DNA of 64,000 nucleotides from a virus (lineage: Duplodnaviria; Caudoviricetes): IMG/VR virus record IMGVR_UViG_3300037851_000671, positions 154,773 to 218,772 of that record. One strand, given 5' to 3'. Below the pieces are notes generated by a model, which was given only the letters and a program-made list of their open reading frames with translations, ran no database searches and had not been told where the DNA came from. The translations under genes were made by a program, and so were the position numbers. Of this stretch, positions 10,642 to 63,994 are shown one piece after another (within the stretch, counting starts at the first letter, position 1; the number at the start of each line of letters is the position of its first letter).

Positions 10642-10712
10642 GACAGCGAAAAAAAAGATCCGACCTTTTATTTGGTTTTGAATTCGAGATGAAAGATCGG
10701 TTGCGCGCTGTC
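10642..10712 (-). ncRNA. modular Y-RNA-like element E1 (minimal, no tRNA cargo)
   Basis: GACAGCG-CG..CCGATC-TTTCATC..GGTCGG..TTTTTTTT-CGCTGTC; ends complementary. Confidence 0.75.
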
Positions 10713-10792: not shown

Positions 10793-10909
10793 GGCAACGA
10801 AATTATGTAGACAATAGGCCGGCTTTTTACACCGTTTCCAAAGCCTCCGATGGATTCGAACCACCTAGCGCCAATTGATGATAGATGAAATGTCTACGAG
10901 CGCGTTGCC
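10793..10909 (-). ncRNA. modular Y-RNA-like element E2 (T-arm plus hairpin cargo)
   Basis: GGCAACG-CG..GTAGACA-TTTCATC..GGTGGTTCGAATCCATC..TGTCTAC..TTT-CGTTGCC. Confidence 0.75.
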
Positions 10910-10919
10910 AGAAATTAAA

Positions 10920-11054
10920 GAGTAACGAAAATTGCAGGACCACTGTTTTTTGTGCTACAATTACAACACATCCAGCCTTTCGACCGGAGCTGGGATTCGA
11001 ACCCAGACCTCTTAATTCTCAATTTAGGATGAATGATCCCACTGCGCGTTACTC
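10920..11054 (-). ncRNA. modular Y-RNA-like element E3 (circularly permuted tRNA cargo)
   Basis: GAGTAACG/CGTTACTC closing stem; T-arm CTGGG-TTCGAAT-CCCAG; acceptor TCCGGTC/GGCTGGA capped by GAAA; D-arm-like segment follows. Confidence 0.85.
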
Positions 11055-14236: not shown

Positions 14237-14899
14237 TCAAAAATCGTCCATCTGATCTGCGAATTTCGTAATTAGGTTTGACAGGGTATGAGGCTCACGT
14301 TTAATGAGTGCTACATATTCTGTTTTAGAGTTCACAAGCCAGTTCACAAGATCTACTGTGTTTATCGCATCAATCTCAGCAGAGTGCGCCCCAATCTTTG
14401 GAGTTATTCCAATACCAATCAGGAAGTTATTGAGACCAAACTTTACCTTTGGCTCTCCTTGAGCTGCTGCAATTTTTTCAGCAAGTCCATGTTTCTTGAC
14501 AGCTAATTGTGCGTACTGTTTTGTACACAACCAAAGGTCTGCCGGAAATTCTTTGTCACATGACTTCCAGGCCGCGTGACAGAACTTCCTATCAAAAGGT
14601 GCGTTGTGAGCGTAGATACATCTATGCGCTCTGGTTTTGCCATCCTCTTCAAAAAAGGCATCGATTATGTCAATGGCCTCTTTCAATGGGATGCCAACAT
14701 CAAGGTCATCGACAATTTTACCCTGTATTTCGAGGGCTTGTGGACTTGCCCGCTCAGGATTATCAACCTTTATGTCTACTGATAGCTGCTTTCCTGTAGA
14801 AAGTCTTATGACAGAGAATTGGTTAATTTGATGCCATTCACATTTTAGACCAGTTGTTTCAGTGTCTATAATGTAGTATTCTATATCATTCGCGGCCAT
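14237..14899 (-). CDS. DEDDh 3'-5' exonuclease (DnaQ-like)
   Basis: 'IIDTETTGL', 'AHNAPFD', 'HSAEIDA'. Confidence 0.85.
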   Translation of the reverse strand: MAANDIEYYIIDTETTGLKCEWHQINQFSVIRLSTGKQLSVDIKVDNPERASPQALEIQGKIVDDLDVGIPLKEAIDIIDAFFEEDGKTRAHRCIYAHNAPFDRKFCHAAWKSCDKEFPADLWLCTKQYAQLAVKKHGLAEKIAAAQGEPKVKFGLNNFLIGIGITPKIGAHSAEIDAINTVDLVNWLVNSKTEYVALIKREPHTLSNLITKFADQMDDF

Positions 14900-55079: not shown

Positions 55080-55204
55080 AGCAACGAAAGAATCGAAGAC
55101 CTTGCTTGTCGGCTGCTCTACCACTGAGCTATGTGGCGGGAAACCACAGCAGGACTCGAACCTGCGACCCGCTGATTAGGATGAAGGATCCTCTACGCGT
55201 TGCT
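55080..55204 (-). ncRNA. modular Y-RNA-like element E4 (circularly permuted tRNA cargo)
   Basis: AGCAACG/CGTTGCT; GATC-CTTCATC; T-arm GCAGG-TTCGAGT-CCTGC; acceptor TGTGG/CCACA closed by a loop; D-arm GCTC-AGTGGTA-GAGC; GGTC. Confidence 0.9.
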
Positions 55205-55207
55205 TTG

Positions 55208-55279
55208 TCGGGGTGGCCAGGATCGAACTGGCGACTTCTAGTTCCCAAAACTAGCGGACTACCGCTGTCCTACACCCCG
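55208..55279 (-). tRNA. tRNA-Pro(TGG)
   Basis: loop TTTGGGA, C1-G72, A73. Confidence 0.9.
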
Positions 55280-55789
55280 TAAATCTAAATCATGTCCAGC
55301 ATGTAATGCTGCGTGACAGTTTTTGCAAAGAAGAACACATGTTTCAATTTCAGTTTTAACGTTTTCCCAACACCAACCTCTTGAATATTTGAAATTAGGA
55401 TCTTTTTTGGAAGGATCTAGATGATGTATATCTAAAGCTGCTTGATATTTATCATATCCACACGCTTTACATTTACCTCCAAGAAACTCCCTGGCTCTAT
55501 TTTTATTTTCTTGGCCCAGTTTAGTGGTATATTTGTTGTGACACCTACCACAAACTGTTGTTTTGTTACCATAGAATTTTTCTGGATTTGTTTCTCCACA
55601 ACTACATTTACGAGGGCGTGGTATTTTTGAGTCCTTGTTTTCTATTTTCCCATGTGGCCCACGTAACAAAACAAGTTTTTCTTTTTGTACCCAGTATCTA
55701 ATTGTTGTTTGTGAACATTCTAGTTCTTTTGCAAGTTCATTTGTACTATATCCATTTTCAACTAGTTTTTTTAGTTTCTCGATATCCAT
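55259..55789 (-). mobile_element. HNH homing endonuclease with N-terminal HTH
   Basis: 'GGKCKACGY..ALDIHH..CVLLCKNCHAALH'; stop codon lies in the tRNA-Pro D-loop. Confidence 0.85.
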
Positions 55790-55808: not shown

Positions 55809-55932
55809 AACGAACGAAAGTTTTGAAGACCAACGCCCTCCGAAAGTCATGTTTCCTTGGGCCTAAATGATGCCCGCCAATTTAGGACATCGCACTGTCA
55901 TATTGATGAAAGATCTTCGTGACGCGTTCGTT
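55809..55932 (-). ncRNA. modular Y-RNA-like element E5 (non-tRNA hairpin cargo)
   Basis: AACGAACG/CGTTCGTT; GAAGATC-TTTCATC..GGTCTTC; internal CCTAAAT/ATTTAGG stem. Confidence 0.8.
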
Positions 55933-56470: not shown

Positions 56471-56622
56471 AAGGAACGAAAAAGCGAAAGACCAGTTTTT
56501 TCGCGCTCTACCAGACTGAGCTATATGCTGATGTTGGGCTTTATGAGCCTTGTCAGCATAGTTGGATTCGGACCAACGACCTCGATCTCCTAAAGATGAA
56601 TGATCTTTCTAACGCGTTCCTT
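56471..56622 (-). ncRNA. modular Y-RNA-like element E6 (circularly permuted tRNA cargo)
   Basis: AAGGAACG/CGTTCCTT; GATC-ATTCATC; T-arm GTTGG-TCCGAAT-CCAAC; acceptor TATGCTGA/TCAGCATA with inserted hairpin; D-arm GCTC-AGTCTGGTA-GAGC. Confidence 0.9.
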
Positions 56623-56703: not shown

Positions 56704-56771
56704 ACTAACGAAAATAGCGATGACCTTGGTTTTCAATGTTCGGTTGATGAAGGATCATCTTGCGCGTTAGT
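56704..56771 (-). ncRNA. modular Y-RNA-like element E7 (minimal)
   Basis: ACTAACG-CG..GATGATC-CTTCATC-20 nt-GGTCATC..TTTT-CGTTAGT. Confidence 0.8.
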
Positions 56772-58139: not shown

Positions 58140-58289
58140 AGATAACGAAAAGGGCTCAGACGAAGTTTTTTCCAGCGTCCAGCCGCCGCATGTTGCCCGG
58201 TTTTACCCAGGTGGTGCGGCGCAGGGAAATCGAATCCCTGTCGTTTGAATTATCGGTTCAAGATGAATCGTCCAAAAAGCGCGTTATCT
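58140..58289 (-). ncRNA. modular Y-RNA-like element E8 (permuted acceptor with encoded ACCA)
   Basis: AGATAACG/CGTTATCT; GGACG-ATTCATC..CGTCT; T-arm AGGGA-TTCGATT-TCCCT; GCGCCGC-ACCA-insert-GCGGCG. Confidence 0.82.
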
Positions 58290-58327
58290 GGCGATGCTGT
58301 AAACACCCAAGCTTACAGCGTCATTTG

Positions 58328-63175: not shown

Positions 63176-63271
63176 AGGATAACGAAAATTGGTTGACCTT
63201 TTGCCTTACGGCACATTACGTTTCGGTTTTTATTACTGATGTAGATGAAAGATCAAACCTGCGCGTTATCT
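63176..63271 (-). ncRNA. modular Y-RNA-like element E9 (short non-tRNA cargo)
   Basis: AAGATAACG/CGTTATCCT; GGTTTGATC-TTTCATC..GGTCAACC. Confidence 0.8.
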
Positions 63272-63350
63272 TGGAAGCGGGTCTTGGATTTGAACCAAGG
63301 AAACTAGGCTTATGAGACCCAGGAGTTAGGCCAGACTACTCTAACCCGCG
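63272..63350 (-). tRNA. tRNA-fMet(CAT)-like
   Basis: C1-U72 mismatch, loop CTCATAA, encoded CCA. Confidence 0.8.
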
Positions 63351-63359
63351 ATAGTGAAT

Positions 63360-63517
63360 AAGCAACGAAAAGATTTGAGACCCTGCCTTTCGGCTCTGTT
63401 GTGTATACCAATTCCACCATACCGGCGTTTCCACGTTTCCACCGATAGCGGGACTCGAACCCGCAAACGTATTAGGTGACAGTTTTACAAGATGAAAGAT
63501 CTCGGATCGCGTTGCTT
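63360..63517 (-). ncRNA. modular Y-RNA-like element E10 (permuted tRNA-Leu-like cargo)
   Basis: AAGCAACG/CGTTGCTT; GAGATC-TTTCATC; long variable region, T-arm GCGGG-TTCGAGT-CCCGC, Leu-type D-arm GGTGGAATTGGTATACAC. Confidence 0.88.
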
Positions 63518-63609: not shown

Positions 63610-63791
63610 AGGATAACGAAAGATTGTCAGACGGGTTTTTCAACACCAGTCTGCCCATTGTTTTCAGAAGAATTGAGACTTGTTTTTACCGGCACAACCA
63701 GCATCTCAATTTGGCGGGCAGCTAAGGAATCGAACCTTAATGTCTATACGTTGGAAATATTAGATGAACCATCTAACTATGCGCGTTATCT
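63610..63791 (-). ncRNA. modular Y-RNA-like element E11 (permuted acceptor with encoded GCCA)
   Basis: AGATAACG/CGTTATCC; AGATGG-TTCATC..CCGTCT; T-arm TAAGG-TTCGATT-CCTTA; GCTGCCC-GCCA-insert-GGGCAG. Confidence 0.82.
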
Positions 63792-63875: not shown

Positions 63876-63994
63876 AGCAACGAAAGGAGCGAGACCCTAC
63901 ATGCCCACATGGGCGATTCCCCAGTGAAAAGAACCCGAAGGTTCGGTGGGGAATTAAGTTTCGAGCTTAGATGAAAGATCCCTAACGCGTTGCT
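63876..63994 (-). ncRNA. modular Y-RNA-like element E12 (multi-hairpin non-tRNA cargo)
   Basis: AGCAACG/CGTTGCT; GGGATC-TTTCATC..GGTCTC; internal TTCCCCA/TGGGGAA and GAACC-TTCG-GGTTC stems. Confidence 0.82.

Follow-up and report, generated by a model that had tools for sequence, protein, structure and literature searches.

Ribonucleoprotein particles of Ro60 and Y RNAs are conserved from bacteria to humans, and partners recruited through the loops of the RNAs are known in a few cases. The animal Y RNAs (Y1, Y3, Y4, and Y5) are RNA polymerase III transcripts, paralogues that have one Ro60-binding stem and differing loop domains, none of them tRNA-like, which bind different proteins. The bacterial Y RNAs, which include YrlA (RF02553), YrlB, and Yrn1 and Yrn2 of D. 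radiodurans, are 60-180 nt long, with 5' and 3' ends that pair into a stem with a conserved loop and a variable middle module that in many cases mimics a tRNA and has its acceptor stem closed (PMC4201824). Their genes are habitually located near the Ro60 gene and on the same strand, and each species also has Y RNAs that are not tRNA-like; Y RNAs without a tRNA-like module have been described for YrlB, Yrn2, and the animal Y RNAs (PMC4201824). The motif GNCGAAN0-1G, or CGAA, near the 5' end is the presumed Ro60 contact of the known Y RNAs (PMC4201824; PMC12135203), and the YrlA of M. smegmatis is cleaved by RNase P and receives CCA (PMC4201824). In the Thermus phage phiLo, a phage-encoded Ro60 binds the phage RNAs Yrl1 and Yrl2, and forms a complex with the host PNPase in vitro (PMC12135203; PDB 9KOP, 9L5Y).

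The stretch of DNA analysed here, called the window, corresponds to the final 64 kb of a freshwater virus record in IMG/VR. The record contains 218,772 bases and is estimated to be ~51% complete, and the source virus is therefore a huge phage. The minus strand of the window encodes 31 tRNA genes, interspersed with 12 copies of an RNA family, E1-E12 (Table 1). According to a motif-plus-pairing scan of the whole record, all 12 copies are located in the window and on the minus strand, and there are none elsewhere. Most of the copies abut tRNA genes, with spacers of 3-4 nt, while E3, E5, and E8 have no tRNA directly ahead. Just upstream of E8, where other copies have a full tRNA, there is a hairpin, GCUGUAA...UUACAGC, followed by AUCGCCA, which resembles a minihelix ending in CCA.

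Table 1. Positions in the window of the RNA family copies, their parts, and neighbouring features.
Feature	Position	Strand	Description or basis
E1	10642-10712	minus	family copy without tRNA-like body
E2	10793-10909	minus	family copy
E3	10921-11053	minus	family copy
E4	55080-55204	minus	family copy, tRNA-like
E5	55810-55931	minus	122 nt; family copy, no T-arm
E6	56472-56621	minus	family copy, tRNA-like
E7	56704-56771	minus	family copy, minimal 20-nt loop
E8	58141-58288	minus	family copy
E9	63178-63270	minus	93 nt; family copy, no T-arm
E10	63361-63516	minus	tRNA-like copy between E9 and E12
E11	63612-63790	minus	tRNA-like copy between E9 and E12
E12	63876-63994	minus	119 nt; family copy, degenerate T-arm
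E5 P1	55931-55925 with 55816-55810	minus	motif and pairing scan
E5 5' loop CGUCAC	55924-55919	minus	motif and pairing scan
E5 P2	55918-55912 with 55831-55825	minus	motif and pairing scan
E5 UUUCAUC	55911-55905	minus	motif and pairing scan
E5 3' loop AAAACUUU	55824-55817	minus	motif and pairing scan
E5 payload	55832-55904	minus	73 nt, no T-arm
E5 hairpin GAUGUCC/GGGCAUC	55891-55869	minus	used in minimum-energy fold
E5 hairpin CCUAAAU/AUUUAGG	55886-55862	minus	alternative to GAUGUCC/GGGCAUC, mutually exclusive
E5 third hairpin GCCC...GGGC	55862-55835	minus	fold
E9 hairpin UGCC-GUAA-GGCA	63213-63202	minus	after 30-nt A-rich tract, 3 to 4 nt ahead of P2 3' strand
E12 T-arm-like hairpin UAAG-CUCGAAA-CUUA	63969-63955	minus	fold and alignment
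E12 acceptor-like 8-bp stem UUCCCCA/UGGGGAA, capped by GAACC-UUCG-GGUUC	63954-63916	minus	fold
E12 hairpin GCCC-AUGU-GGGC	63914-63903	minus	fold
E12 AUGUAGGGUC/GAUCUUUCAU pairing	63898-63910 with 63970-63982		9 of 10 positions can pair
Ro60/Rsr homologue, 548 aa	12040-13686	minus	presumed protein partner of handle
RNase T gene	14237-14899		
HNH endonuclease gene	55259-55789	minus	N-terminal helix-turn-helix
Hairpin ahead of E8	58289-58320	minus	followed by AUCGCCA
tRNA-Met	63272-63350		unusual; also L148:1320-1400 in G004

The copies share a terminal structure, here called the handle. Read as RNA from the minus strand, it consists of a 7-bp stem P1 that ends in AACG/CGUU, an internal loop in which 4-5 variable letters and UUU on the 3' side are opposite an invariant CG on the 5' side, and a stem P2 of about 7 bp that ends in GAUC/GGUC. 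P2 is followed, on the 5' side only, by (N)UUCAUC, and the variable body is placed between UUCAUC and the 3' strand of P2. E5, E9, and E12 all contain P1, the CG/UUU loop, P2, and UUCAUC, and each is predicted to fold into a terminal stem with the conserved loop and a variable central module; their lengths fall within the about 80-130 nt of Y RNAs in the broad sense. A covariance model, R1, was trained on 16 short copies, with 13 coming from other phages; E9 was part of the training set, while E5 and E12 were not. R1 recovers exactly the 12 window copies, all at full length, and nothing else at E<=1. The scores are 47.5 bits for E5 (E 5.5e-10), 39.7 bits for E12, and 53.4 bits for E9, and all three matches span model positions 1-70, which bears out the original prediction that these copies have the same closing stem.

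In an alignment of 63 distinct copies from about ten phage contigs, which was fitted to R1 and thereby favours the structure, 95.5% of the handle cells are paired and 13 of the 14 handle pairs show changes on both sides. There are 171 cells with such double changes, compared to 44 +/- 6 after shuffling and no more than 33 in the slid controls, and the observed pairing and covariation values were matched by none of 500 shuffles. Since pairing and double changes exceed those in the shuffles, and an independent motif-anchored count agrees, the alignments indicate that the handle is a real, selected RNA structure.

The window also encodes a protein that matches the vWA_Ro60 model in Pfam with 30.1 bits (cut-off 27.7). 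When 17 of the 94 homologues of this protein were combined into a profile, the profile matched D. radiodurans Rsr (2nvo) with an E-value of 6e-20 across almost the entire length, and frog and human Ro60 (1yvp/9nen) with about 1e-19, while the phiLo Ro60 is a weak match to the same profile (E 2e-8). Judged by these similarities, the protein is a full-length Ro60/Rsr homologue. E3, E2, and E1 are located 1.0-1.4 kb downstream of its gene and on the same strand; E5, E9, and E12 are also on the strand of the Ro60 gene but 42-50 kb away. Handle copies are located 0.6-3.7 kb downstream of a Ro60-like gene, and on the same strand, in nine of 11 phage contexts, namely the window, the related phage records G003 and G004, and the loci L195, L196 (with a variant frame), L197, L198, L199, and L200. 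The Ro60-like proteins of these contexts are only 53-72% identical to that of the window. No handle was found near the Ro60-like gene in the other two contexts, G001/L127 and L191.

Other genes recur in this region of the phage relatives. A nucleotidyltransferase of the CCA-adding or poly(A) polymerase type and an exonuclease of the RNase T family are conserved just upstream of the Ro60-like gene in L191 and L195-L198, and the window also contains an RNase T gene. Just downstream of the Ro60-like gene in this conserved neighbourhood, there are small antisense ORFs for coiled-coil proteins, and then the handle RNAs. The relatives also encode a PARP-like protein with WGR, PARP_reg, and PARP domains (L191 1-741, L195 929-2455, L196 1-916, and L199 8022-9428), and release-factor-like and eIF-1a-like proteins are also found near the Ro60 region.

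The phage family resembles the bacterial Y RNAs in length, in the pairing of the two ends into a stem with a conserved loop, in the variable middle module that is often a tRNA mimic, in the location of some copies (E1-E3 in the window) near the Ro60 gene and on its strand, and in the presence of members that are not tRNA-like. YrlA is the only non-tRNA model in Rfam that matches the family, but the scores are far below the threshold of 69 bits: E4 reaches 42.5 bits in its tRNA-like part and E6 reaches 37.8 bits over the full model. No copy in the family attains the threshold, and YrlA gave no match to E5, E9, or E12 even at E<=10. The tRNA models (RF00005 and ARAGORN) made no call overlapping these three copies, and a full tRNA-like module with a T-arm, a D-arm, and a closed acceptor stem is present in none of them, E12 having only a degenerate T-arm and an acceptor-like stem. 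The permuted look of the tRNA-like copies is accounted for by the likeness to YrlA, which explains their arrangement. A permuted tRNA with a self-cleaving frame was rejected, as the letters of the core are incompatible with a hammerhead three-way junction and no ribozyme was returned by Rfam at E<=10, and a reading of the frame as a bulge-helix-bulge or circularisation element was also dropped.

There are several differences from the known Y RNAs. The handle sequence is another one: GNCGAAN0-1G, or CGAA, is not conserved across the handle copies, in which the invariant letters on the 5' side are AACGCG and UUCAUC. The phage has 12 copies in half a genome, rather than the one to four of the bacterial systems, and most of them are placed within tRNA arrays, at distances of tens of kb to the Ro60 gene. 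The non-tRNA loops are A-rich in the phage but pyrimidine-rich in bacteria, and the form of YrlB and Yrn2 was not found, as the loops of E9, E1, and E7 are A-rich while the bodies of E5 and E12 contain multiple hairpins; the likeness is thus in concept and not in form. The stem of the animal Y RNAs, which contains a bulged helix with GGUCCGA, has no sequence relationship to the phage family. Like the window phage, phiLo encodes a Ro60 ring and Y-like RNAs beside its gene. The two phiLo RNAs were found through the CGAA motif, whereas the family described here has a different handle and is large and diversified.

We propose, with a probability of about 60%, that E5, E9, and E12 are Ro60-handle RNAs with reduced or lineage-specific bodies, an interpretation that draws on the gene neighbourhood and on analogy for the binding to Ro60. 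The handle would serve as the docking site for the Ro60/Rsr ring protein of the phage itself, and the RNA would work in the same way as the known Y RNAs, either as a gate on the ring or as a tether to other factors. The reason for assigning Ro60 as the partner is that handle copies adjoin a Ro60-like gene in nine of 11 contexts and that there are precedents in phiLo and in the Y RNAs. The assignment is weakened by the lack of the CGAA motif, by the lack of a YrlA match above the threshold, by the distance of E5, E9, and E12 to the Ro60 gene, by the two contexts without a handle, and by G002. The latter record (L008; IMGVR_UViG_3300035208_002255; 169,027 b) has inverted terminal repeats and is rated 100% complete, and it contains 10 handle copies, while neither the Ro60-like protein nor vWA_Ro60 or TROVE has a match anywhere in the complete genome. 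The handle can thus exist without a phage Ro60 gene.

The copies in G002 and the lack of the CGAA motif, together with the short spacers to the tRNA genes, would also fit a handle that is a signal for the processing or stability of the tRNA operon, read by RNase P/Z, RNase III, or RNase E, or a dock for another protein of the phage or the host, with the nearness to Ro60 being incidental. The conserved neighbours, the CCA-adding-type nucleotidyltransferase and RNase T, could in that case be the real partners. We consider this quite unlikely, since handle copies are placed just downstream of the Ro60-like gene in the nine contexts even without an adjacent tRNA, and no tRNA stands directly ahead of E3, E5, and E8. 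Moreover, the invariant nucleotides of the loop look like a specific protein-recognition site and not like a generic RNase site, and the Rsr protein for G002 may come from its host.

No T-arm is present in four of the window copies (E1, E5, E7, and E9), and that of E12 is degenerate. The original prediction named E5, E9, and E12 as the copies with non-tRNA bodies, a list that is incomplete, as a tRNA-like body is missing from E1 and E7 too. Under a strict definition of the T-arm motif, there are two to five copies without a T-arm in each of G002, G003, and G004, a few of which have variant T-loops. In L195-L200 and G003, most copies beside the Ro60-like gene are elements of 58-88 nt with loops of 11-40 nt, and minimal copies with loops of 11-24 nt are common. 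The bare handle with a small loop looks like a common, and possibly basal, form of the family. The non-tRNA bodies had been thought to be the least precedented part of the family, which does not hold, because copies without a T-arm are present in every relative and represent the main type beside the Ro60 gene, and because Y RNAs without a tRNA-like module had already been described (PMC4201824).

Some short motifs recur among the copies. AAAACC is recurrent in the A-rich loops of E1, E7, and E9. The motif A(A/U)UUG(G/A) is found 8-25 nt after UUCAUC in many copies, such as E2, E3, E5, L152:1610-1730, and L166:8980-9047, and among copies of the E2-type class it can form pairs with CCNAUU immediately ahead of the 3' strand of P2.

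The top half of tRNA, the minihelix of the acceptor stem and the T-arm, is recognised by RNase P, the CCA-adding enzyme, and others. E12 can be aligned over its entire length with tRNA-like copies of G003 and G002, and the alignment of its payload with the tRNA-like copy L166:3624-3775 has a score of 35, compared to a null maximum of 26. In this alignment, UAAG-CUCGAAA-CUUA falls at the position of the T-arm in the tRNA-like relatives, UUCCCCA...UGGGGAA corresponds to an acceptor-like stem which, like its counterpart in the relatives, is closed by a cap hairpin, and GCCC-AUGU-GGGC stands in place of the D-arm and the hairpin ahead of P2. Because the end-to-end alignment puts the T-arm-like and acceptor-like parts in register, E12 is, as judged by its relatives, a reduced tRNA mimic that has kept the acceptor/T top half and lost the D-arm and the anticodon-like stem. 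The hairpins of E12 are thus not an unrelated set without a T-loop, as was suggested earlier. The T-arm-like hairpin adjoins the acceptor-like stem in the same manner as in the tRNA-like Y RNAs. However, the T-loop, CUCGAAA, has a C at the position of U54 and is placed on a 4-bp stem, the acceptor-like stem is closed by a hairpin, and there is no D-arm with which to form an elbow. The support for the fold of the payload by itself is modest (z -1.95, with 8 of 200 shuffles being as good).

The orthologue of E12 in G004 (L142:1916-2035) is 92-93% identical in sequence and has the same predicted fold. G004 is a record of 336 kb with a Ro60-like protein that is 71% identical to that of the window. 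The differences between the two copies include a compensatory change from C-G to U-A in P1, an additional U-A pair in the cap hairpin, a change from A-U to G-U, and changes in the loops. The alignment of homologues, which had been proposed as a check, thus showed that the body of E12 is kept. E12 is the best conserved of the element pairs shared between the window phage and G004, the other pairs being 76-80% identical, and such a degree of sequence conservation points to strong constraint or to recent exchange. Docking of the tRNA-minihelix type is probably preserved to some extent in E12.

In E12, AUGUAGGGUC, located before and within the 3' strand of P2, can pair with GAUCUUUCAU. A pairing of this type is also found in the tRNA-like copies L138:1690-1848 and L139:1377-1525, and in this subclass it would engage the conserved and otherwise single-stranded UUUCAU. 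The order of the elements in this region differs between the relatives. The unusual tRNA-Met marks a shuffling of modules: in G004, the E12 orthologue is located ahead of it and the E8 orthologue after it, while the same tRNA-Met in the window is followed by E9, and E12 is located two elements upstream.

E9 contains neither a T-arm nor a D-arm. As predicted, its body carries the hairpin GCC-GUAA-GGC, which may be extended to (U)GCC-GUAA-GGC(A). The predicted fold of the payload alone is no better than that of shuffled sequences (z -1.0, 33/200). The Rfam search of E9 gave no match on the minus strand, and only a chance-level match to UPD-PKc on the plus strand (20.1 bits, E=1.8). No orthologue of E9 was found by BLAST searches against the four related phage records (G001-G004) or by pattern scans of metagenomes, and the orthologue in G004 of the tRNA-Met upstream of E9 is trailed by the E8 orthologue and not by E9. 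The 121-aa ORF that adjoins E9, which was checked for synteny, has no homologue. The payload showed no similarity above the shuffled null, including in the enlarged catalogue.

The layout of E9, with an A/U-rich tract and a stable tetraloop hairpin just ahead of P2, recurs in L187:3839-3926 (G003) and L197:12444-12531. These two copies are orthologues of each other and both adjoin Ro60-like genes, and their hairpin covaries, with CCGGC/GCCGG in one and CCAAC/GUUGG in the other. The sequence similarity between E9 and the copies in L187, L197, and L196 was not significant (p 0.04-0.26), and the layout alone is in common. A GNRA hairpin ahead of P2 like that of E9 is also present in the tRNA-like copy E10 (GCC-GAAA-GGC) and in the relatives of E10. 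In E9, the handle is combined with an A-rich loop and, just ahead of P2, a hairpin with a GNRA cap, in a layout that is recurrent but with a sequence of its own that has no relative.

E5 differs from most copies in its neighbours, which are protein genes (a 167-aa ORF on one side and an HNH endonuclease gene on the other) rather than tRNAs. The HNH gene begins 20 nt beyond E5, has its end within tRNA-Pro, and stands between E5 and the tRNA that would come next in its absence. E5 also has neither a T-arm nor a D-arm. The motifs quoted in the original prediction are all present on the minus strand of E5, E9, and E12, but in E5 the CCTAAAT...ATTTAGG hairpin is absent from the minimum-energy fold, in which it is outcompeted by GAUGUCC/GGGCAUC. 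A pseudoknot was rejected, as the two hairpins overlap and the linkers would be of zero length, and they are therefore alternatives. The fold of the E5 payload by itself is no better than in shuffles (z -1.0, 32/200), Rfam gave no match on either strand, and a scan for promoters and terminators around E5 gave the same counts as in shuffles.

A BLAST search against G001-G004 did not identify any orthologue of E5. When the search for orthologues of E5 and E9 was widened, a combined pattern of handle and payload gave no matches in the metagenome collection, a payload-independent handle pattern recovered only known relatives or chance matches in the metagenome and viral collections, and the GenBank phages yielded tRNA matches only. 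The 167-aa ORF has a single homologue, at a locus without a handle and without a tRNA, and the epimerase neighbourhoods that were checked for synteny with E5 and E9 contained no handles. The sole similarity of the E5 payload above the null is a stretch of 15 nt, AAAUUGGnGGGCAUC, shared with the E2-type copy L142:1159-1264 in G004 (score 26, null maximum 24). This match was not reproduced in the enlarged catalogue, which omits that copy. For a derivation of E5 from the E2-type class (AAAUUGG), the MAFFT alignment was unconvincing, and the 15-nt match is a weak lead. The body of E5 is lineage-specific, with a fold that is unsupported beyond chance.

The handle may be the only functional part of E5 and E9, with bodies that are neutral filler, either decayed remnants of tRNA-like modules or random insertions, and that have no effector role. 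This agrees with the lack of orthologues in G001-G004 and in two metagenome scans, with payload folds at a z-score of about -1, and with the common copies with 11-24-nt loops, which show that the handle can stand alone. It also agrees with the enlarged catalogue, in which every tRNA-like payload and E12 have a relative above the null, but the payloads of E5 and E9 have none. We nevertheless regard neutral drift of the bodies as somewhat unlikely. The handles of E5 and E9 are perfectly intact, implying that the copies are maintained, and the nearest relatives are only ~70% identical in protein, so that the absence of orthologues is weak evidence. Furthermore, the layout of E9 recurs in other phages with covariation in the hairpin, and drift is inapplicable to E12. 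As Ro60-handle RNAs, E5 and E9 would most likely act mainly through the handle, with which they would occupy or regulate Ro60, and would dock barely or not at all to enzymes that act on tRNA.

It had also been proposed that the non-tRNA bodies base-pair to targets, in which case they would be antisense regulators of phage or host RNAs, delivered by the handle. The single-stranded A-rich tracts of E9, E1, and E7 are all that speaks for such a role. The longest complementarity between the payloads of E1, E5, E7, E9, and E12 and both strands of the 218-kb record, which covers about half of the phage genome, was 11-13 nt, at or below the 95th percentile of 13-14 nt in shuffled sequences. With no excess over the shuffles in this record, a role as guide RNAs appears very improbable.

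The combination of a shared handle with differing bodies corresponds to the modular logic of the Y RNAs, which is positively supported for E12 only. One could imagine that a dozen or more RNAs with the same handle form a library of interchangeable adaptors for the phage Ro60, in which the bodies without a T-arm, in E5, E9, and the reduced E12, would recruit partners that are closed to tRNA-shaped bodies. This is unlikely, but if it were true, one ring could be redirected in the course of infection to several nucleases or RNA targets, for example against RNA-based defences of the host.

Because Y RNAs without tRNA-like modules were already known, the results introduce no new principle or kind of element and represent a modest extension of the Ro60/Y-RNA system. 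What is new here is that the family is not purely tRNA-like, and that at least one non-canonical body, that of E12, appears to be under strong selection. The bodies form a gradient from full tRNA mimics through the trimmed mimic E12 to bare loops and the orphan bodies of E5 and E9, and a clade of phages with a dozen same-handle RNAs and such graded bodies would represent a natural experiment on which partners the loops of Y RNAs recruit.
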